A stretch of 64,000 nucleotides of DNA from Candidatus Latescibacterota bacterium (GTDB taxonomy: Bacteria; Latescibacterota; UBA2968), in contig OZ220741.1 in NCBI GenBank assembly GCA_965116885.1, positions 5,376,001 to 5,440,000 of the forward strand, written 5' to 3'. Positions within the stretch are counted from its first letter, which is position 1. Each line of letters begins with the position of its first letter. The notes beneath the pieces were generated by a model that saw nothing but the letters and a program-made list of their open reading frames with translations, ran no database searches and was not told the DNA's origin. This document shows positions 1-9,485 of this stretch, piece by piece. The translations under genes and the position numbers were made by a program.

Positions 1-1
1 G

Positions 2-754
2 GAAACCGATTAACGTACCGAATGCGAAAACAACAGCACCAAAAATAGAAAATATGCGGAGTGCTTTGTAGCGGGCGTAAGTGCGCAGACTGATCATGCC
101 CGACTTAAAGACAAATACACCCGGATTTTTGAAAAGACGCGATTCGCGCGTTTTGGGATTCGTGCGAATAGGTACAGTTTCGACAGCGAGACGGTCTTGA
201 CCCGCTTGCACAACATGCTCGGCAGTATGATCAAAATCCGTAAACATCGACAGACGCAGAACCGCTTCTCTTGAAAAGGCGCGAAAACCACTGGCGACAT
301 CGGGCACCTCAATATGGGCGAGGCGACTGATGATGCGACTACCCAAACCCTGTAGCCATCGCTTAAAAAAAGAAAAGTGGCCGATATCACCTGTCTGTCG
401 ATCTCCAATAACGATATGGGCGCGCTTCTCGAGAATGGGCTGAACAAGCGCTGCAATATCGGGACCATAGTACTGATTATCGCCATCGGTATTGACAATA
501 ATATCGGCACCGAGTTTGAGACAAGTGTCAAAACCCGCTTTGAATGCATGCCCCAGACCGCGGTTTTTGGGGAATCTGACAATATGATCCACGCCGAGAT
601 CGCGCGCGACCTCAGACGTGCGATCCGTAGAACCATCGTCAATGACCAGAATCTCGACTTTGTCAATACCGGGAACTTCGCGTGGAATATCGTTAACCGT
701 AGCGGGCAGGGTTTCTTCTTCGTTGAGGCAGGGGATTTGGACAATCAGTTTCAT
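2..754 (-). CDS. Glycosyltransferase family 2 (DPM1-like), truncated by the left window edge
   Basis: Not in the ORF track. Manual translation from ATG 754 gives MKLIVQIPCLNEEETL...VIDDGSTDRT...NRGLGHAF...VNTDGDNQY (GT2 motifs, DxD). Starts 2 nt after the herA stop. Confidence 0.9.
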   Translation of the reverse strand, partial: MKLIVQIPCLNEEETLPATVNDIPREVPGIDKVEILVIDDGSTDRTSEVARDLGVDHIVRFPKNRGLGHAFKAGFDTCLKLGADIIVNTDGDNQYYGPDIAALVQPILEKRAHIVIGDRQTGDIGHFSFFKRWLQGLGSRIISRLAHIEVPDVASGFRAFSREAVLRLSMFTDFDHTAEHVVQAGQDRLAVETVPIRTNPKTRESRLFKNPGVFVFKSGMISLRTYARYKALRIFSIFGAVVFAFGTLIGF

Positions 755-756
755 TT

Positions 757-2430
757 TTAATCGCCAAAAATAGCAGCCGATGCGGCCTCGGCCTTTTCCA
801 TTTTTTCTTCTTCGGATAAATCGCCCATCGCTTTGTAAAAAATTTCATCGTAATCGCGCGTTTTGATAACCACGGGCATAGGTACCGCATGCCCAAATAC
901 AAGGGCTTGCTGTTTGGAATCGAGACTGGCCAGAACACTTCGCAAGCCAGAGGCATTTGAAACACCTGTGAGTACCCCCTGGATGTCTTTTTCATCATTG
1001 AGCAAAGCCGTGATTTTTGTGCCGAGTTGTGAAAGCACTTCTTCGTCAATCCCCGAGGGACGCTGGTCAACCACGAGGAGCGAAACGTAGTATTTACGCA
1101 TTTCTCTGGCAATTGTACCAAAAATGGTTTGCCTTGCAGTCGCGGGATTGAGAAACTTGTGGGCTTCTTCAATGGTGATAACCAGGTGCCGCGGCTGATC
1201 TTCGGGATTTTGCGAGGCGTAAAATTTTTCGCTTTTTGTGACGTATTGTTCGTGAATGCGGCGAGAGAGAATATTCGCCACGAGCAAATACGCGAGCATG
1301 CCGGTCTGCCGACCAAACTCGAGCACAATGTGAATGCCGCGGTCGATGTAATCCATCATCGTATCGACGGCATCGGCTCCGTTGAGGCTATTGACCATAA
1401 AGGGAAAGGTTTCGAGGCGTTTGAGTTTGCGATGCAGCGCGGAAAGCGAACTTTTATTGGCACCAATATCCTCGGCAAATTGCTCGACATCGGGACCGTC
1501 AATAGAAAGCAATTGGCGCAGCCAGCGGTCTTTGTACATCGCGTAAACGAGATAGGCAGATTCAGAAGCCGTGGGATTGAGTTGCAGTTCGTCTTGCAAC
1601 GCGATAACATCTTCGACCGCGACCTGATCGTAGGTAATGTACACCTCGTGATCGGGTTGAATACCGCGCTGCCGAGACGATTCGGGATCGAGAGAAAATA
1701 GGGCCACCTGATTCCCAAAAAGCTGCTTGAGACCCTTGACAAAGCTATTTCCCTGTCCGCCCTCTTTCATAGCGCGAAAACCGTATTCGTTGTGCATATC
1801 AAAAATGAGATTGACGGCTTTCTTGTTTTTGATCAGACCGCACAAAACCAGACGCGTGAGAAAGGACTTACCCGTACCCGTTTTGCCAAAAATACCGTTA
1901 CTGCGTTCGACAAAGCGATTGAGATTGATGCACACCGGCGTATCCATATCCAATGGCGTACCCATGTTGAAAAACCGGTCGTCTTTTTCCTCGCTGCCAA
2001 AAACGCGCGATACATCCTCTTCTTCAGCTTCAACAACTTTGGAAAAATGACTGGGAATAGTTTTCACCGGACGCGGTTCATCAACGATTTCTTCGCCCTG
2101 TTCCAGCATGAGCATAGGACGCAGTGCAACGGTGACATAGGTACTGGACCCATTGAGAACGCTGTGCAACAACTGATCGCCCTCGCGCGGTGGATAAAGC
2201 AAAATTTCGGGATTGGTCGCATCCAGACTCAGGTCGGTGATCATGGAGAAAAACTGATTTTTATAGCCCTCAATAACCACAAATTTGCCAGCCTTGACGT
2301 CTTCTACACTGCGGTCGGGGTTGAGTTTCATCTCAACGCCCTCGGTCAAAGACCCTTGCGTGACAACGCCGATTTCGCCGCCATCTTGAATATTGGGCGA
2401 ACCGTTTAGATTATTCCAGAGATCGTTCAT
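757..2430 (-). CDS. herA: HerA-family (DUF87) ATPase/helicase with N-terminal HAS barrel
   Basis: Walker A GKTGTGKS, IFDMHNEY, Walker B ITIEEAHKF, IAREMRKY arginine finger, DQRPS motif; lies next to nurA. Confidence 0.9.
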   Translation of the reverse strand: MNDLWNNLNGSPNIQDGGEIGVVTQGSLTEGVEMKLNPDRSVEDVKAGKFVVIEGYKNQFFSMITDLSLDATNPEILLYPPREGDQLLHSVLNGSSTYVTVALRPMLMLEQGEEIVDEPRPVKTIPSHFSKVVEAEEEDVSRVFGSEEKDDRFFNMGTPLDMDTPVCINLNRFVERSNGIFGKTGTGKSFLTRLVLCGLIKNKKAVNLIFDMHNEYGFRAMKEGGQGNSFVKGLKQLFGNQVALFSLDPESSRQRGIQPDHEVYITYDQVAVEDVIALQDELQLNPTASESAYLVYAMYKDRWLRQLLSIDGPDVEQFAEDIGANKSSLSALHRKLKRLETFPFMVNSLNGADAVDTMMDYIDRGIHIVLEFGRQTGMLAYLLVANILSRRIHEQYVTKSEKFYASQNPEDQPRHLVITIEEAHKFLNPATARQTIFGTIAREMRKYYVSLLVVDQRPSGIDEEVLSQLGTKITALLNDEKDIQGVLTGVSNASGLRSVLASLDSKQQALVFGHAVPMPVVIKTRDYDEIFYKAMGDLSEEEKMEKAEAASAAIFGD

Positions 2431-2459
2431 AAAAGGTAGCTTCCATTCTTACTTCACAT

Positions 2460-3056
2460 TTACTGCGAAATCCGCCGCATAATAGAACTCAGGCGGTCGT
2501 AGTCGTCGCGGATAAGGCGACACAGGTCTTTGCCAATACTCACCAAATAGGGCATGTCCGAAGCACGAGCTGCCCACGCATTTCGCACCGAGGCAATGAT
2601 GAGATCGTCGGCGGGCAGGCGGTTGCCACATAAAATGCTGCGGAGAAAATCCCCACTATTGGTCAGGGCTTTAATTTCGGATTCGGTACATGGAAAAACA
2701 AAGCTGTGAATCCCGGGCGGTTGCGGTGGCAAGACCTGTTGCGGGCCCTGGTCGTCGCCATAGCCAATAATAACGGCTTCGAATTCAGTCTTGAGAAGTT
2801 CAAAAATTTGCGGCTGCTCTTCGCGCAATTCTTGTTCCGTAAGCCCATAAGCCGTGGCGCGTCGGTTGGGTTCAATAGAATGCGTACACACATTGAAAAC
2901 CAGGCCATATACAGGCAATGCACCAATAGTCTTGACAAAGGAGCCGAATGGCGGTGCGCCATTTAGCTCCCGGCTTTCAGAAGTAAATTGCGAAGTCGAG
3001 CTTTCGACAATTTCGCCAATATATTCAGTGCTGATATCAATAGAAGAAAGAGCCAT
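2460..3056 (-). CDS. Stand-alone HAS-barrel domain protein of bacterial nurA-herA loci
   Basis: IGEIVESSTSQF...PPFGSFV...EQPQIFELLKTEF...PPQPPGIHSFV pattern; sits between nurA and herA. Confidence 0.75.
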   Translation of the reverse strand: MALSSIDISTEYIGEIVESSTSQFTSESRELNGAPPFGSFVKTIGALPVYGLVFNVCTHSIEPNRRATAYGLTEQELREEQPQIFELLKTEFEAVIIGYGDDQGPQQVLPPQPPGIHSFVFPCTESEIKALTNSGDFLRSILCGNRLPADDLIIASVRNAWAARASDMPYLVSIGKDLCRLIRDDYDRLSSIMRRISQ

Positions 3057-3067
3057 AAAAAACCTCT

Positions 3068-4288
3068 CTATACAGCTGCAGCCATTTTTTTCAGTTGTTT
3101 GAGCGACTGTTCAGTTTTGATATTATTTTTTACAAAAGCGTCTTTTAAGAACTTAAAAAATATATCGCGGTCAGCCCCGCGCACAATGGCGCGTTCGTGG
3201 GATTCGGATAAGACGACGGGATATCCGCGCCCCTTATCGACCTGATCAATAACCGTGGCGTGTACGAGATCGAGCAACTCGCGGTCTTTGGCAACCCATT
3301 CGGGGATTTCGACGCGTCCAATTTCCCAACCCGTGTGTACGTAAAAAAAGCAGATGCGGTGGGGACCGTAGTCCTCGAGGATTTTAGACGCGCTGCGATA
3401 AACACCACTGCGCTCGCCGCGTTTGAGTCTCCGGGCATACAGCATATCGTCGGTAACGCCGGCAATGGGTTCACAGGGAATGGGCGCAGGCGGTTCGGAA
3501 TCCCCATCAAAATCGAGAAGATGCTGCGCTTCGGCTGCTTTCCACGGACACTTGTCGCAGTTGGGAGGCTGTTCGGGGCAAAGGCCCACGCGCAAGGCAT
3601 TGAGCACATCGGCACTGCCGGGATCTGAAATATACCCGGCAATGGGAACGCGGAGTTCGCGCAGACGCTCCAAACCAGCGAGTGTGGTCTGAAGCGTTTC
3701 GCGGCGAAAATCGTAGGGTTTGCCTTCGAGCATCCACAAAATCAGGGTGCCATCGGTCAGCCCAACACAGGTTCGGCCCTCTGCGTGCGCCAGAGCAGAG
3801 AGGGTAACTACCTTTTCGAGTTCCATCGCATTGCGCCGCACGCCAACGACTTCGCGGGTGATTGGACTGCGCTTGCCCGCCCATTCCTGATAGAGGTCGT
3901 CTTCATCGTAAAAAAGCGTTGGTTCGCTGTTTAACACCGGGCGTTCTCCCGTACCGTAATGAATGACGACATAGCCAATATTAATCAAAAAACAATTGGC
4001 GACTTCGTGCCGGTCGGGGAATATCTGAGACCCATCGGCGGCAATAACGGTGAGTTCTTTGGGGCGGTCGGGTCTTGGACACGCCTCGGCAATCGGCCCG
4101 CCGAGTTGGGCAACCAGCCAGGAAGTGCGGCTACGTGCAATTTTAATACCCAGGGTTTCCCAGGCACCTTCCCAGCGATCCATTTCGGAACATGCCAGAT
4201 CAATGCGGGCAAAAAAGTCGTCTTGCAAAGTACTGGCGTCAACCGCCATCTGGTCAATCTGGCGTTTGAGCAAACCGTAATCGAGCAT
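3068..4288 (-). CDS. nurA: NurA-family nuclease
   Basis: AADGSQI, LTDGTL, GRVEIP and GRGYPVVLSESHERA motifs. Start moved to ATG 4288 because GGAG lies upstream. Confidence 0.9.
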   Translation of the reverse strand: MLDYGLLKRQIDQMAVDASTLQDDFFARIDLACSEMDRWEGAWETLGIKIARSRTSWLVAQLGGPIAEACPRPDRPKELTVIAADGSQIFPDRHEVANCFLINIGYVVIHYGTGERPVLNSEPTLFYDEDDLYQEWAGKRSPITREVVGVRRNAMELEKVVTLSALAHAEGRTCVGLTDGTLILWMLEGKPYDFRRETLQTTLAGLERLRELRVPIAGYISDPGSADVLNALRVGLCPEQPPNCDKCPWKAAEAQHLLDFDGDSEPPAPIPCEPIAGVTDDMLYARRLKRGERSGVYRSASKILEDYGPHRICFFYVHTGWEIGRVEIPEWVAKDRELLDLVHATVIDQVDKGRGYPVVLSESHERAIVRGADRDIFFKFLKDAFVKNNIKTEQSLKQLKKMAAAV

Positions 4289-4308
4289 AAGAGGCTCCAG
4301 GGAGCGAA

Positions 4309-4866
4309 TCACACAATTGATTCATAAAAAAATTGCCGACCACCGCCGGGGACACTGCCATCGCGCACGCGGCACACGAGACCCATTTTTTGCAGGGCAT
4401 TGAGCCGATTACATGCGATATTGATATTTTTTCTCAACGCGTGGGCAAACTCGGAAGACGTACCTTTTTTTCGAGACAGAACAATGTCAAGGGCTTCTCG
4501 AATGGGCGTTTTGAGCACACCGAGCACATGAATATCGCCTTCGTCATCTTTGAAAAGCGCGGCCAGGTCGCGCAATTTGAGCACGGCCTCAAAGGTCTCG
4601 CGCACGGAATCATTGGCGTTTTGGATAAAGGTAAAGCGATTGCCAAGCTCCCCACTGCCAATACGCATAAGGAGTTTGCAAAGCAACTCGTCGGCGCATG
4701 AGATATCGATAAACGAGACATTGGCAAAGTCGAGGGGCGTAACCGCATCGTCATCGGCTGTCTGCATAAATGCCATAAGCTGATTGAGCAGGACTTCGCC
4801 TCGATCTCGCCCACTCAGAATACCCGTAGGCGTCTCAAAAACGAAAGGGGGGGTTTGTTCAGGCAT
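4309..4866 (-). CDS. STAS-like (DUF4325-type) domain fused to a C-terminal winged HTH; putative regulator
   Basis: LSGRDRG...LDFANVSFIDISCADELL resembles STAS with the D-x-S site; TSSEFAHALRKNINIACNRLNALQKMGLV...GGRQFFY resembles a wHTH. Confidence 0.7.
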   Translation of the reverse strand: MPEQTPPFVFETPTGILSGRDRGEVLLNQLMAFMQTADDDAVTPLDFANVSFIDISCADELLCKLLMRIGSGELGNRFTFIQNANDSVRETFEAVLKLRDLAALFKDDEGDIHVLGVLKTPIREALDIVLSRKKGTSSEFAHALRKNINIACNRLNALQKMGLVCRVRDGSVPGGGRQFFYESIV

Positions 4867-4934
4867 CTCATCGTCCCTTAAAATTCGGTTGAAATTCGAT
4901 TTGTGGGGATTGGGGGAACGATGGGGAAGATATT

Positions 4935-4956
4935 ACTTAATTGAATTCAGTTAAGT
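4935..4956. promoter_or_regulatory. 22-bp imperfect palindrome, candidate operator
   Basis: ACTTAATTGAATTCAGTTAAGT; 10 of 11 positions pair. Confidence 0.6.
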
Positions 4957-4962
4957 TATCGG

Positions 4963-4991
4963 AACTTAGGTGTTCTGAAATGATATGTCAA
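4963..4991 (-). promoter_or_regulatory. sigma70 promoter for the STAS-wHTH/nurA/herA operon
   Basis: TTGACA (4991-4986), 17-nt spacer, TAAGTT (4968-4963). Confidence 0.6.
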
Positions 4992-5018
4992 GTATTTTTT
5001 TGGGATTTGGTGCAGTGC

Positions 5019-5047
5019 TTGCAAATACGGCGCGTGTGAGATATATT
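5019..5047 (+). promoter_or_regulatory. sigma70-like promoter for queE
   Basis: TTGCAA-17 nt-TATATT. Confidence 0.45.
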
Positions 5048-5095
5048 TCTTTAAATACCACAGACGACTGCTAAAAAGCACAACTCTATAAAGGC

Positions 5096-5725
5096 TTGAA
5101 TGTGAACCCTCCGGCATCCAAAGATCAAATGCCCGTTTGGCGCGACACTGGTGCGATTTTGCAAGTTAATGAAATTTTCTATTCCATAGAAGGCGAGGGC
5201 CTGCGCGTGGGACAACCCACAACATTTGTCAGGCTTGCGCGTTGTAATTTGCGCTGTTTTTTTTGCGATACGGAATTTGATTCTTTTGAGGAAATGACCA
5301 TTGCTCAAATTGTCGATGAAGTCATGCATCATTCTGCAAAGTGGGTGTGTTTGACAGGGGGAGAGCCACTGGGGCAAAATATCACGCCACTGTGCAGGAA
5401 ACTCGTCAGCGCGGGTTTTCGATTGCATATCGAGACAAATGGAACGATTGATCCAGATCCAATTTTATGCGACCTGATTGAACACTGGACCGTATCGCCC
5501 AAACGGCGAAAAATTGCCGATGGCCTCACGCATATCACCGAACTCAAATACGTGGTGGGCAAAGCATTTTGCGAAACTATAGTCGATGAAAACCGAGCAA
5601 AATATATTTATTTACAACCCGAATCGAGCAAACCCCAATACATTCACAAAGCATTGGAAATTTTGTCGCGACATCCCAACTGGCGCTTATCGTGTCGCAT
5701 TCACAAAATGTTGCAATTACCATAG
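5096..5725 (+). CDS. queE: 7-carboxy-7-deazaguanine synthase (radical SAM)
   Basis: EIFYSIEGEG, FVRLARCNLRCFFCDT, LTGGEP, HIETNG, TVSPK, LQPE, WRLSCRIHK. Exact start uncertain. Confidence 0.9.
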   Translation: MNVNPPASKDQMPVWRDTGAILQVNEIFYSIEGEGLRVGQPTTFVRLARCNLRCFFCDTEFDSFEEMTIAQIVDEVMHHSAKWVCLTGGEPLGQNITPLCRKLVSAGFRLHIETNGTIDPDPILCDLIEHWTVSPKRRKIADGLTHITELKYVVGKAFCETIVDENRAKYIYLQPESSKPQYIHKALEILSRHPNWRLSCRIHKMLQLP

Positions 5726-5736
5726 GAGACAGATAC

Positions 5737-6738
5737 ATGATTAAACTGGGTATGATCGGATGTGGTGGCATGGGGGGTGCCCACATGCGGCGGTTTCACA
5801 CACTGAGTGATCGGGTCACATTGACCGCTGCTGTCGATGTTGTGCCAGAACGCGCAGAAGCAGTTGCCCAGCAATTTCCAGGAGCCTGTGTGGCAACAGA
5901 TTATCGCGAGATTTTAGACTCGGTAGATGCCGTATTGCTCGCACTACCCCACCATTTGCACTTCTCGGTAGGACATGCGTGTCTCAATGCTGGCGTTCAT
6001 GTCTTGCTCGAAAAACCCATGGCCAATTACGAAGTCGCCTGCAAAGAACTAATTGAGGCATCCGAAACCTCGGGCAAAGTGCTGATGATTGCGTATTGCA
6101 TGCGCTTTCATCCAATTGTACAGCGTTTAAAAGCATTGCTGGATGAAGGCGCGTACGGCGATGTATTTCAAGTGTCGATCTGGACCGAGCAACTCACCCG
6201 GTATCCCCCCGATCACTGGGCATCGAGCAAAGAGCGGTTGGGCGGGGGGCAGTTGTTTAGCCACGGCTGTCATTATATCGATTTATTACTCTGGTTTTTG
6301 GGACGCCCCGTGCAGGGCATGCACATGGGCACAAATTTTGGTACGCCGTGGATGGAGCGAGAAGGCACGAGCAATGTGACGATGGAATTTGAAGATGGTC
6401 GTCTGGGATATCACTTTGGCACCTGGGGCGCGCGGGGCACCCGATTGCGGTACTCGATCCACGCGCATTGCACAGAAGGTTTGCTCGATGCCGATCTCTC
6501 AGGTGGCAAACTCGTGCATATCCTGCGCGGTCAAGAGAAAGTTTTGTTCGAAGCAGAGCCGGGCAAACACACGGAAAACGAGATGGCCCATTTTCTCGAT
6601 TGCATTGAAACCGGACAAACACCGTTGACAGATGGCAGAAGCAGCTTGCAGGGATTGCGCGTGATCTGGCGGCTATATGAAGCCGAACAAGCAGGGCATA
6701 TTGCAGATTTGACGGGTTTGGGTTTAGAGGAAGTCTAA
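5737..6738 (+). CDS. Gfo/Idh/MocA oxidoreductase
   Basis: GMIGCGGMG, HVLLEKP, GGGQLFSHGCHYID; GGAG before ATG 5737. Confidence 0.9.
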   Translation: MIKLGMIGCGGMGGAHMRRFHTLSDRVTLTAAVDVVPERAEAVAQQFPGACVATDYREILDSVDAVLLALPHHLHFSVGHACLNAGVHVLLEKPMANYEVACKELIEASETSGKVLMIAYCMRFHPIVQRLKALLDEGAYGDVFQVSIWTEQLTRYPPDHWASSKERLGGGQLFSHGCHYIDLLLWFLGRPVQGMHMGTNFGTPWMEREGTSNVTMEFEDGRLGYHFGTWGARGTRLRYSIHAHCTEGLLDADLSGGKLVHILRGQEKVLFEAEPGKHTENEMAHFLDCIETGQTPLTDGRSSLQGLRVIWRLYEAEQAGHIADLTGLGLEEV

Positions 6739-6801
6739 TAAGTTTCGAAAATTCAATAAATTGAGATAGTGATTCTACCTCCACAATTGGGTAATTTCCG
6801 C

Positions 6802-6830
6802 TTGACACTCCGACACTCTTATTATAGATT
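6802..6830 (+). promoter_or_regulatory. sigma70 promoter upstream of thrS
   Basis: TTGACA-17 nt-TAGATT. Confidence 0.65.
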
Positions 6831-6958
6831 TATCAGACTTTGGCAGGTTTCTATCTTTTAATCTCATTGCTGAGGGATATCTGCGGGCGAAACTGCTCAC
6901 CGAACGGTATCACGATTTCACATTTCGCGCGCCGGCAATTCCCGAGCGCGATTTTTTT

Positions 6959-8893
6959 ATGCCCGAAAACCATTTCATAACCATTACGCTTCCCGACGGT
7001 TCGACCAAAGAAATTGAACGCGGCACAACCGTGCTACAAGTAGCCGAATCCATCGGTGCAGGCCTTGCCCGCGCAGCATTAGCCGGGCGAGTTGATGGTC
7101 AAGCGGTGGATTTGAGTTACCCGGTTGCTTCAGATGCCGCGGTTGAGATTTTGACTTTTTCCGACGATGGAGGCAAAGAGGTTTACTGGCATAGCACCGC
7201 ACATGTGATGGCACAGGCCGTGCAGGATTTGTTTCCCGATGCCAAAGTAACCATTGGTCCGCCCATTGAAAATGGATTCTACTACGATTTTGATATCGAT
7301 CGGCCGTTTACACCCGATGAACTAAAAAAAATTGAAGCGCGAATGCTGGAAATTGCCAAAGAAGACCAGCCCTTTTCTCGCGAGGAAATCTCGCGCGATG
7401 AGGCTTCTGCGCGTTTTCGTGATTTGGGTGAATCCTACAAAATCGAGCTTTTAGATGCCATTGCGCCCGAAGAGACCGTGAGCATCTACAAAAATGCCAG
7501 GTGGTTTGATCTGTGCCGGGGGCCACACCTGCCGTCAACAGGGCGCATTAAGGCCATCAAGTTGTTAAACGCATCCGGGGCTTATTGGCGGGGCGATGAA
7601 AACAACAAAATGCTACAACGCATCTACGGTATCTCATTTCCCGGCAAAAAAGAATTGCAGGCATATCTCGATAAACTCGAAGAGGCCAAACGCCGGGACC
7701 ACCGCACATTGGGCGTGCAGTTGGACCTGTATTCGATAAATGACAATGTGGGGCCAGGCCTGGTGCTCTGGCACCCTAAGGGAATGCGGATTCGTCACGA
7801 GATTGAATCATTCTGGCACAGTGCTCATTTCGACGGTGGATATGAACTGGTTGGCTCCCCTCATATTGGACGGTCCAGCCTGTGGAACACAAGCGGACAT
7901 CTGGATTTTTTTCGCGAAAATATGTACGCGCCGATGGATATCGATGGACAGGAATATTTTGCCAAACCCATGAACTGTCCATTTCACAGCATGATTTACA
8001 AAAGCCGTCGTCGGAGTTATCGCGAGTTGCCATTGCGCTGGGCAGAAATGGGAACGGTTTACCGGTATGAACCAGCGGGAGTACTGCACGGGCTTTTGAG
8101 AGCGCGCGGATTTACACAGGATGACGCGCATATCTTCTGCCGCCCAGATCAGGTCGAAAGTGAAATTAAACAGACCATAGATTTTACGCTGTTTATTCTG
8201 CGGTCATTTGGTCTCGAAGATTTTAAGATCGATATTTCCACGCGACCCGAAAAAGCCGTAGGTGACCCTCGCGATTGGGATATGGCGACAAATGCCTTGA
8301 AAGCCGCGATAGATGCACAGGGTTTAAAATATGGCATTGACGAAGGCGGCGGCGCATTTTACGGACCCAAAATTGACGTGCAAATTAGAGATGCACTGGG
8401 GCGTGAATGGCAGTGTTCGACAATTCAGTTTGACTTCAACCTGCCCGAGCGATTCGATTTGACTTTTGCCGGGCAAGATGGCAAGATGCACCGCCCTTAT
8501 ATGGTACATCGCGCGCTTTTGGGGTCAATGGAACGGTTCTTTGGCACACTCATCGAGCATTATGCCGGCAATTTCCCCGTGTGGCTGGCTCCCGTACAAG
8601 CTGTTATTTTACCTGTATCGGATCGTTTCATTGACTATGCACAGCAAGTTGCCAGACTGCTTCGAAATGACCAGGTGCGCGTTGAAGTAGATGACCAGGA
8701 TGCCAAATTGGGCTACAAAATTCGAGAGGCAGAAGTTCAAAAAGTACCCTATATGCTCATTGTTGGCGCGCGAGAAGTTGAGAATGGCACGGTGTCGGTT
8801 CGCCGTCATGGCCAGGGGGATTTGGGTACACTGAGCCTGGAAAATTTAATCGCGCGTATTCAGCAAGAGGTCGAATCCAAACAGTTTTCGTAA
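6959..8893 (+). CDS. thrS: Threonine-tRNA ligase
   Basis: TGS domain, HSTAH editing motif, DLCRGPH, KPMNCP, GAFYGPKID, anticodon-binding domain. Confidence 0.98.
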   Translation: MPENHFITITLPDGSTKEIERGTTVLQVAESIGAGLARAALAGRVDGQAVDLSYPVASDAAVEILTFSDDGGKEVYWHSTAHVMAQAVQDLFPDAKVTIGPPIENGFYYDFDIDRPFTPDELKKIEARMLEIAKEDQPFSREEISRDEASARFRDLGESYKIELLDAIAPEETVSIYKNARWFDLCRGPHLPSTGRIKAIKLLNASGAYWRGDENNKMLQRIYGISFPGKKELQAYLDKLEEAKRRDHRTLGVQLDLYSINDNVGPGLVLWHPKGMRIRHEIESFWHSAHFDGGYELVGSPHIGRSSLWNTSGHLDFFRENMYAPMDIDGQEYFAKPMNCPFHSMIYKSRRRSYRELPLRWAEMGTVYRYEPAGVLHGLLRARGFTQDDAHIFCRPDQVESEIKQTIDFTLFILRSFGLEDFKIDISTRPEKAVGDPRDWDMATNALKAAIDAQGLKYGIDEGGGAFYGPKIDVQIRDALGREWQCSTIQFDFNLPERFDLTFAGQDGKMHRPYMVHRALLGSMERFFGTLIEHYAGNFPVWLAPVQAVILPVSDRFIDYAQQVARLLRNDQVRVEVDDQDAKLGYKIREAEVQKVPYMLIVGAREVENGTVSVRRHGQGDLGTLSLENLIARIQQEVESKQFS

Positions 8894-8942
8894 TGCACCA
8901 TGCGTTTGTTAGATTCCTATATCCAACCTGGAGGTGATCGCA

Positions 8943-9485
8943 ATCAATAGAGGCTCAAGAAGTCGAGATACCAGACGAGAAATCGGACCACGCGTGAATC
9001 GGCAGATTCGCATTCCGCAAGTTCGCTTGATCGGTGAATCGGGAGCTCAAGTGGGCATTGTAGAAACGAGCAAAGCCCTGACAATGGCTCAGGGAGCCGG
9101 ACTTGATCTGGTCGAAGTTGCGCCAAATGCACGCCCACCTGTTTGCCGAATTATGGATTACGGTAAATACCGGTATGAGCGAGGGAAAAAAGCCAGAAAA
9201 AATCGTCAGAGTGCCTCGCAATTAAAAGAAATTCGGATGCGTGTTCGTATCAGCGATCACGATTATCAATTTAAGATCAGGCATGCTGAAAAATTTTTGA
9301 CCCAGCGCCATAAAGTGCGGATGGTTATTGAGTTTTTTGGACGAGAAAATGCACATCGCGATATGGGCCGCGACTTATTGCAGCGCATTGAAGACGATTT
9401 ACAACATATTGGACAGATCGAAACGCATCCCCGCGACGAAGGGCGAAAGCTCGTGATGATTGTCGCGCCAAAATCTCAGTCGTAG
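8943..9485 (+). CDS. infC: Translation initiation factor IF-3, probable ATC start
   Basis: VRLI...LDLVEVAPNARPPVCRIMDYGK; SD GGAGGTG at 8930-8936 is 6 nt before an in-frame ATC at 8943. Confidence 0.95.
   Translation: MNRGSRSRDTRREIGPRVNRQIRIPQVRLIGESGAQVGIVETSKALTMAQGAGLDLVEVAPNARPPVCRIMDYGKYRYERGKKARKNRQSASQLKEIRMRVRISDHDYQFKIRHAEKFLTQRHKVRMVIEFFGRENAHRDMGRDLLQRIEDDLQHIGQIETHPRDEGRKLVMIVAPKSQS

Follow-up and report, generated by a model that had tools for sequence, protein, structure and literature searches.

At the beginning of a 64-kb stretch of DNA (hereafter the window) from the genome of a Candidatus Latescibacterota bacterium, a genome that consists of a single 5.56-Mb contig (C1), five genes on the minus strand form an operon whose first gene encodes a 185-aa protein related in sequence to the solved CapS repressors. 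We propose, and would give the proposal a probability of about 0.7, that this CapS-like repressor and a distant CapK-like kinase govern an operon of nurA, a stand-alone HAS-barrel gene and herA. The fold of the regulator, its homology to CapS, the conservation of its promoter and operator, the order of the genes and the co-occurrence of the two partners were all computed here. The stretch had earlier been read from its letters alone, and this preliminary description had already seen in it a regulator with STAS-like and winged helix-turn-helix (wHTH) parts, followed by nurA, a HAS-barrel gene, herA and a GT2 glycosyltransferase gene, all behind one promoter.

Fold and kinship of the regulator

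The regulator gene (4309..4866, minus strand) was assigned from an AlphaFold2 model and from profile matches. The model, made with 29 homologues, is of high quality (predicted local distance difference test score, pLDDT, 92.6; predicted template modelling score, pTM, 0.87) and bears out the two-part fold: the check that had been set beforehand found a STAS domain at residues 1-112 and a wHTH domain at 118-185. The best structural matches of the STAS half were SLC26A11 (Z 10.5 over 100 residues), the anti-sigma antagonist TM1442 (Z 9.6), YchM (Z 9.4) and a stressosome chain (Z 9.4), and the wHTH half matched MarR/ArsR winged helices at Z of ~10.8. The STAS signal was clearer in the wide structure search by VIA-align than in Foldseek, which against the PDB gave wHTH matches, with STAS at weak ranks only. 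Family collections named little: a Pfam scan of the 185-aa protein gave no family, NCBIfam gave only weak matches to Sta1/Lrs14 wHTH proteins, and among the cluster names of 10 distant homologues one reads 'ArsR family regulator' and the rest say nothing.

A profile of the 29 homologues matched the solved CapS chains 9z72/9z73 (185 aa, E 4.1e-08) and 9z71 (184 aa, E 2.3e-04), in alignments spanning residues 99-184 and 75-180, such that the STAS half is aligned by sequence only in part. CapS is described as a dimeric STAS-wHTH repressor, and CapK as an ssDNA (single-stranded DNA)-activated HTH-STAS-GHKL kinase, HTH being helix-turn-helix (Chambers, Rani, Min, Villa and Corbett, EMBO J 2026, PMC13373217; structures 9z71-9z73). 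According to the same text, CapK phosphorylates Ser54 (E. roggenkampii CapS) in the second STAS helix, upon which the dimer dissociates and the downstream operon is derepressed; the pair is styled a 'controller of adjacent pathways'. The DNA contacts given there for CapS are N145, K151 and the wing glycines G169-G170.

Several residues of the window's regulator are conserved. S56, D59, E60 and G174-G176 are invariant in 29 of 29 homologues, the last forming an invariant GGG at the tip of the wing. Ser56 sits in the motif D-I-S-C-A-D-E at the N-terminus of STAS helix 2 (residues 55-71) and is at least 90% conserved across 37 distant relatives with 24-48% identity; we equate it with CapS S54 by its position, not by direct alignment to a CapS chain. 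In a hidden Markov model (HMM) alignment to 9z71, whose helix register is uncertain, the positions of CapS N145 and K151 are taken by I150 and N156, with N149 and N153 close by.

Promoter and operator

The promoter that the preliminary description had read upstream of the regulator gene is present at 4991-4963, with a −35 hexamer TTGACA (4986..4991, minus strand) and a −10 hexamer TAAGTT (4963..4968, minus strand) at a spacing of 17 nt. Taken by itself it is weak: TAAGTT matches TATAAT at three of six positions, a consensus promoter scan did not report it, and promoter-like sites found in 1-5400 numbered four against 5.9 expected from shuffles. Because the window promoter alone does not rise above chance, our call of it rests on conservation among relatives. 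We collected 79 regulator loci from species-representative genomes, with regulator identities of 55-98%. In 76 of the 77 related loci that have the operator described next, the form TTGACN-16..18-TAnnnT is conserved, with the palindrome 3-10 nt past the −10; the sole miss (L062) has just 41 nt of upstream DNA. TTGACA is exact in 70 of these 76 promoters, and the −10 reads TAAGTT in 36 and TAATTT in 19.

The candidate operator TTAACTGAATTCAATTAA (TTAA-N10-TTAA; 4937..4954, no strand assigned) lies at 4954-4937, 8 nt past the −10, within a longer palindrome ACTTAA...TTAAGT at 4935-4956. CapS is reported to bind TTAA half-sites set 10 bp ("wide") or 1 bp ("narrow") apart at promoters, with binding to the wide form in vitro (PMC13373217), and in half-site and spacing the putative operator of the window equals the wide palindrome. 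It is the only TTAA-N10-TTAA in the window. Across the 79 loci the motif stands upstream of the regulator in 77, and these make up the bulk of the 86 copies counted over 1.0 Mb of locus sequence, with the consensus TTAAtTGAATTCAgTTAA; the placement of the presumed operator across relatives is thus far beyond chance. The two other loci are L072, which has the narrow form TTAAATTAA in place of the wide palindrome, and L079, which is without upstream DNA. Neither palindrome, wide or narrow, was found in any of eight fetched herA loci from genomes that lack the regulator, six of which carry nurA, the HAS-barrel gene and herA behind a gene for an SH3 protein (below).

A probable kinase partner in trans

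The preliminary description had held that no kinase is encoded in the window, such that a signal would have to come in trans, and had noted that STAS domains are often phospho-switches of GHKL kinases. The window holds no homologue of the putative cognate kinase (best tblastn E 0.11), and none was found within 7 kb in the window's clade, but in 41 of the 79 loci, the more distant ones, a gene for a 289-311-aa STAS-GHKL kinase lies directly upstream of the regulator on the same strand (Pfam matches for the L034 kinase: HATPase_c 1.1e-08, STAS_2 8.2e-04). The window genome has exactly one orthologue, of 291 aa, at C1:2422863-2423735, which is 51% identical to the L034 kinase (E 1.6e-75) and 2.96 Mb away from the regulator at C1:5380312-5380866. 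Among 168 genomes of the phylum, 84 have both genes, 1 has the regulator only, 0 have the kinase only and 83 have neither; co-occurrence thus holds in 84 of 85 genomes, and the lone exception (G094) is 81% complete with its regulator gene broken by a contig end. In intermediate lineages the distance between the two genes is 15-34 kb (G041, G042, G067) or 0.6-1.2 Mb (G061, G037). Judged from these gene positions, the pair has drifted apart while both genes were retained.

The residues E161, N165, D197xGxG and G236xG238 are invariant in 21 of 21 kinases, and we take them to be the N, G1 and G2 boxes of GHKL proteins. A conserved aromatic residue, Y50 in the motif FIDPYG, is at best a candidate for a residue of the ssDNA activation groove. 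In CapK that groove is described as comprising W68, K237 and K239 (PMC13373217). Against the PDB, the kinase profile gave weak STAS and kinase matches only (E 0.02-0.9).

A predicted complex of kinase, ATP and regulator scored 0.83 against 0.00 for the best control, by a measure whose mark is met by 116 of 157 solved complexes and by 2 of 215 mismatched pairs, counts that are rough (own alignments, riding ATP). Between runs at least 97% of contacts are shared, with a partner pLDDT of at least 89. In the modelled interface, residues 51-56 of the regulator would meet the N-box helix of the kinase, with Ser56 itself in contact with that helix. Because solved SpoIIAB-SpoIIAA complexes exist, the high score may reflect likeness to those rather than this particular pair, and we regard the kinase-regulator contact as supported at the level of a model. 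A phospho-switch thrown by a GHKL kinase acting in trans would match, by analogy, the published CapK/CapS mechanism.

The kinase gene of the window genome begins 8 nt after a gene encoding TPR and GWxTD domains (L081:8745-11273). The L034 kinase likewise has a TPR protein upstream.

Relatives outside the phylum

A metagenome scan with a 10-sequence alignment of distant homologues of the regulator gave 34 loci. In 24 of them the gene directly upstream of the regulator homologue encodes a kinase of the same family, with 28-53% identity to the two Latescibacterota kinases; in nine of the other ten the upstream DNA is shorter than 800 nt, and L157 alone has 6 kb there and no kinase. None of the 34 loci had a match to NurA, HAS-barrel, HerA or SH3. 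Pfam assignments for the 44 downstream open reading frames (ORFs) included SMODS with SAVED-HNH, and SMODS with HORMA and an AAA ATPase (CBASS); multi-ubiquitin, E2, ThiF (E1) and JAB; DUF2188, which we take to be the YegP family, with metallo-beta-lactamase (MBL); MoxR-VWA; and integrases. The kinases that head the CBASS and ubiquitin-like operons are 291-300 aa long by their ATG starts, too short for the CapK HTH. The operon classes published for CapK/CapS are CBASS, Bub/Bil, YegP and MBL, and of 443 capK+capS pairs 348 stand ahead of operons known or predicted to serve immunity (PMC13373217). Because the metagenome relatives head the very classes published for CapK/CapS, the Latescibacterota pair is, as far as sequence comparison can place it, in that family by descent.

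Gene order across the phylum

The preliminary description had proposed counting how often homologues of the regulator directly precede nurA; nurA is the next gene after the regulator, on the same strand, at every one of the 79 loci. The HAS-barrel gene stands between nurA and herA in 74, and the five misses are at loci that end at, or within ~730 nt of, a contig end (L029 ends ~730 nt after nurA). herA shares the strand of nurA in 70, the remaining loci stopping before herA. Over these loci regulator identity is 55-98% and that of NurA 43-98%. The module is single-copy, and its identity declines with taxonomic distance, from 99% within the genus to ~70% within the class. Throughout the genus its neighbours are queE, an oxidoreductase gene and thrS, and the G+C content of the operon, 0.48-0.55, is similar to that of its flanks. 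Of the 168 genomes, 99 have a herA orthologue, 82 of these with the kinase-regulator pair and 17 without it; for three genomes that have the regulator but gave no herA match, completeness is 82-91%. The GT2 gene follows herA in only 20 of the 79 loci, from which we conclude, by its distribution, that it is a clade-specific passenger.

Several variations on this order were seen. Some close relatives have an insert of ~500 nt between nurA and the HAS-barrel gene (L001:8818-9307) that encodes a HicB-like (UPF0150, 4.6e-24) and a HicA-like (5.6e-04) pair, and a contig from an RNA library (X1 record 3) has a 515-letter insert at the corresponding spot (window 3040/3058); relatives thus differ in whether their operon carries a toxin-antitoxin cassette, which the window lacks. 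Larger inserts between the same two genes, ~1.1 to 3.8 kb, occur in L015, L016, L017, L027, L030, L031 and L074. In one large family a gene for a ~220-aa protein with a bacterial SH3 domain (9.2e-05) and a hydrophobic N-terminus lies directly before nurA (for example L034:7536-8204 and L082:7008-7685). This gene is absent from the window's clade and begins the operon where the genome lacks the regulator, placing a seemingly exported protein in a DNA-processing operon. At L085 (G007:C18:4500-15900), the HAS-barrel gene and herA are present with no nurA or SH3 match ahead of them at E 1e-3, and nurA may there be divergent, replaced or elsewhere.

A second operator

A matrix made from 46 distinct operator sites was used to scan the whole genome. 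The window operator was the top match (36.0 bits), and a second site, AGTTTAATTGTTTTCCATTAAACT at C1:5156330-5156353 (L090:5330-5353), reached 26.0 bits, a value that falls among those of the training sites; the third-best site scored 15.2. The second site lies ~105 nt upstream of genes for proteins of 98 and 245 aa, with its palindrome just ahead of TTGACA-17-TATTTT, that is, upstream of the −35. The 245-aa gene occurs in 29 of the 168 genomes, every one of which has the kinase-regulator pair, and TTAA-N10-TTAA is found upstream of it in 27 of the 29 loci, down to 61% protein identity. The 245-aa protein had no Pfam or PADLOC family and only unnamed homologues from Latescibacterota; it matched two weak PHROGs of no assigned function, and its look-alikes in the Atlas are viral hypothetical proteins (score 0.95). 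The operator matches suggest that the regulator probably controls a small regulon reaching beyond nurA-herA. The preliminary description had thought of a possible dedicated circuit; with a second conserved operator at another gene pair, the circuit may not be one. Downstream of this pair lies another gene with TPR and GWxTD domains (L090:6647-9124).

RNA-library coverage

Four metatranscriptome runs of two studies, with the labels sponge metagenome or metagenome (X1-X3 and X5), gave contigs over 700-4946 of the window; none, in any of the four runs, lies over 4963-5100. Their upstream ends fall at 4946, 4938, 4937 and 4930, at 17-33 nt past the −10. The regulator/nurA junction is bridged in two runs (X2 record 14, X3 record 20), other contigs bridge the HAS-barrel gene and herA (X1 record 2, X3 record 19), and one bridges herA and the GT2 gene (X1 record 1). 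The coverage is a weak hint of one promoter.

The gaps between the genes from regulator to GT2 are 20, 11, 29 and 2 nt. The 20-nt gap between the regulator and nurA is too short to leave space for a separate nurA promoter, and this, with the bridging contigs of the two runs, speaks against transcription of nurA from its own promoter, one of the circumstances that the preliminary description had named as damaging to it. The terminator scan, which returned 11 sites against 7.9 expected, flagged a hairpin followed by a T-run at 4349-4336, in the 3'-terminal part of the regulator gene; as this sequence codes for the invariant GGGRQF, we treated the match as chance. The hairpin could attenuate read-through into nurA, though chance is the probable explanation.

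Metatranscriptome and other runs labelled sponge or coral metagenome contain the operon sequence, a hint that the organism lives in association with sponges and has some expression of the operon even where no DNA damage was deliberately caused.

Operon genes and their output

The ORFs agree with the five genes as first described, and Pfam recognises all of them but the regulator. After the regulator comes nurA (3068..4288, minus strand; Pfam NurA 1.1e-27), 406 aa from the ATG at 4288. An alternative GTG at 4312 is open, and the starts of relatives align at MLDYGLL, that is, at the ATG, which is preceded at a spacing of 7 nt by GGAG within the 20-nt gap. NurA had no match among PDB sequences. 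The stand-alone HAS-barrel protein (2460..3056, minus strand; 198 aa; Pfam HAS-barrel 1e-06) scores 29.1 bits against a cut-off of 25.2, its sole family match. herA (757..2430, minus strand) encodes 557 aa with a HAS barrel and an FtsK/HerA-type ATPase (Pfam DUF87 1.4e-31, HAS-barrel 1.9e-07); its relatives in the PDB include 8wiv (3.1e-21) and 4d2i (3.8e-18), and its GKTGTGKS and ITIEEAH are presumably the Walker A and Walker B motifs. The GT2 glycosyltransferase gene (2..754, minus strand; Pfam Glycos_transf_2 6e-24) extends past the window edge. Upstream of the regulator gene the divergent neighbour is queE, which begins at 5096.

The 198-aa HAS-barrel protein has 326 homologues, and the 120 matches listed are at least 53% identical to it. 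Its AlphaFold2 model is poor (pLDDT 64.5, with residues 1-28 and 105-118 below 50), and its C-terminal half is helical; a PDB search with its profile came back empty (best E 0.097), and hhalign gave no match between it and HerA (probability 0.3). The regulator-less loci that were fetched likewise have this gene between nurA and herA. Because NurA is described as docking on the HAS-barrel face of HerA, the stand-alone protein may, by analogy, be an adaptor or a ring subunit.

The genome has LexA (231.6 bits, above cut-off) and an AddA-like gene of 1075 aa, below its family cut-off; RecC was not found in this genome. Given LexA and the AddA-like gene, NurA-HerA is to be seen as accessory in end processing, and the circuit would operate in parallel with SOS. 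Neither Mre11/Rad50, whose genes are linked to nurA-herA in archaea, nor SbcCD was found among the ORFs at window 1-9000, where no search aimed at them was made.

An alternative for the output is that NurA, the HAS-barrel protein and HerA form an anti-phage nuclease-translocase, not a repair machine, and that the pair induces an immune operon. This concerns what the operon does and would leave the regulatory mechanism as proposed. The published preference of capK+capS pairs for immune operons speaks for it; HerA ATPases serve several defence systems, some of them among the PDB and PADLOC matches of HerA here; and a 2026 review has bacterial NurA-HerA mainly degrading foreign DNA (PMC13748450). 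However, the partner of HerA here is NurA, not a SIR2 or DUF4297 effector. PADLOC gave generic HerA matches only and nothing for the other three proteins including NurA, and the NCBIfam model HerA_antiphage scored 90.2 bits on herA, far below its cut-off of 800. Moreover, the module is single-copy in 99 of 168 genomes, diverges in step with taxonomy and keeps its neighbours and the G+C content of its flanks. We consider repair-type end processing somewhat more likely than defence, and the anti-phage output possible but on balance unlikely.

Discussion

The mechanism that we propose is that a CapS-like dimer would bind TTAA-N10-TTAA where it overlaps the predicted transcription start of its own promoter, and that binding would hold down a single transcript running from the capS-like gene through nurA, the HAS-barrel gene and herA to, in this genome, the GT2 gene. 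The CapK-like STAS-GHKL serine kinase encoded 2.96 Mb away would phosphorylate Ser56, and the dimer would then break, release the DNA and derepress the operon, as CapS does. As with CapK, the kinase would be turned on by ssDNA that comes from DNA damage or its repair. We infer the repression, the phosphorylation of Ser56 and the ssDNA signal by analogy with the published pair. None of the three outcomes that the preliminary description had named as damaging to it was seen, and its reading is supported.

Several points weigh against this proposal. First, the genome has its own LexA, such that a damage response needs no CapS-like circuit. Second, the kinase is without the N-terminal HTH of CapK, its STAS domain starting from about residue 10; the CapK HTH could, however, be deleted with no effect on induction or phosphorylation (PMC13373217). 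Third, the immediate adjacency of capK and capS, found in 443 of 443 published pairs, fails in the window. Fourth, the recognition-helix residues N145 and K151 of CapS have no residue-for-residue match in the HMM alignment. Fifth, one TTAA-N10-TTAA in 64 kb is the chance level (0.68 expected; at least one in 46 of 100 shuffles). Sixth, the RNA contigs prove neither a single transcript nor its start, and DNA may have been carried over into the libraries.

A possible objection that leaves the circuit itself as it is would be that the kinase senses a cue other than DNA damage or ssDNA, for example from the envelope or from nutrition, having been re-wired after its separation from the operon. The TPR and GWxTD gene just ahead of the kinase, the TPR protein upstream of it in L034, the missing HTH and the predicted exported SH3 protein in the operon of one large family could all be taken this way. 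But the kinases of the CBASS and ubiquitin-like operons have the same size and architecture, the HTH of CapK proved dispensable, and the controlled genes process DNA ends, which is consistent with a DNA signal; we think a non-DNA cue distinctly improbable. We can all but set aside the idea that the 185-aa protein is a DNA-binding subunit or loader of NurA-HerA, with phosphorylation controlling the enzyme in the manner of VapS, a CapS-like STAS protein reported to inhibit VapC by direct binding (PMC13373217): the protein is unusually conserved for a repressor and always accompanied by nurA, but 77 of 79 loci have at the promoter a palindrome with the geometry of the proven CapS operator, a second conserved palindrome stands at an unrelated gene pair, homologues head unrelated operons, and 17 genomes have the operon without this protein.

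The preliminary description knew of no account of the arrangement. The family of the regulator has in fact been in print as CapS since 2026, although not in connection with NurA-HerA. We found no relevant paper joining NurA, HerA and STAS, and the only literature with the CapK/CapS terms was the one paper and its preprint, in whose main text and 12 of 14 supplementary files (11 and 14 lying outside the search) HerA, NurA and Latescibacter are absent. As far as our searches reach, the attachment to NurA-HerA, the unlinked kinase and the second operator are not in print.

A switch otherwise known from mobile immune operons thus appears to head a conserved single-copy operon for DNA-end processing in an uncultured phylum, with a kinase that has moved away in this lineage yet is retained in every complete regulator-bearing genome. 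A tentative extension, which we hold to be rather doubtful as a whole, is that a CapK/CapS-like defence pair has been domesticated into a chromosomal, LexA-independent damage regulon, with a kinase in trans, at least two operators and, as main output, a three-part NurA/HAS-barrel/HerA resection machine; ssDNA from resection would activate the kinase and so yield more resection enzyme, making the loop self-amplifying. If the proposed circuit is true, it would be a second example, beside LexA, of coupling DNA damage to the expression of resection enzymes, and a natural case of a CapK-type kinase acting in trans on an apparent small regulon. It would also offer a defined operator, promoter and phospho-site testable in E. 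coli with three cloned genes, and the stand-alone HAS barrel would be an uncharacterised third subunit of a bacterial NurA-HerA system.

Just two bacterial NurA-HerA systems have been studied to date, and in a review bacterial nurA neighbourhoods are called not conserved (PMC13748450), in contrast to the stable order across the phylum here. The operon resembles those of Deinococcus radiodurans and Thermus thermophilus in having nurA beside the gene for a HerA ATPase with an N-terminal HAS barrel (PMC9960219, PMC13748450), and differs from them in its additional stand-alone HAS-barrel gene and its dedicated regulator and kinase. With LexA/SOS, CapW/BrxR and CapH+CapP the proposed circuit would share a repressor released on ssDNA made by damage, but release here would be by phosphorylation and not by self-cleavage or by binding of ssDNA to the repressor. 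With SpoIIAB-SpoIIAA and RsbW-RsbV it would share a GHKL serine kinase whose target is a serine at the N-terminus of STAS helix 2. The predicted interface, too, is laid out alike; the circuit differs from these in that there is no sigma factor, the STAS protein has a DNA-binding domain and the kinase has a STAS domain of its own.

The likeness to CapK/CapS extends to the size, STAS-wHTH architecture and homology of the regulator, its helix-2 serine and wing-tip glycines, the TTAA half-sites 10 bp apart at a presumably autoregulatory promoter, and the STAS-GHKL partner, directly upstream in 41 of the 79 relatives; furthermore, beyond Latescibacterota the nearest relatives stand at the head of CBASS, ubiquitin-like, DUF2188 and MBL operons. 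The present system differs from the published pairs in that it would control chromosomal, single-copy nurA, HAS-barrel and herA genes rather than a mobile immune operon, in that the regulator is the first gene and there is one promoter and not two, and in that the kinase is HTH-less and unlinked, with a second operator elsewhere in the genome.

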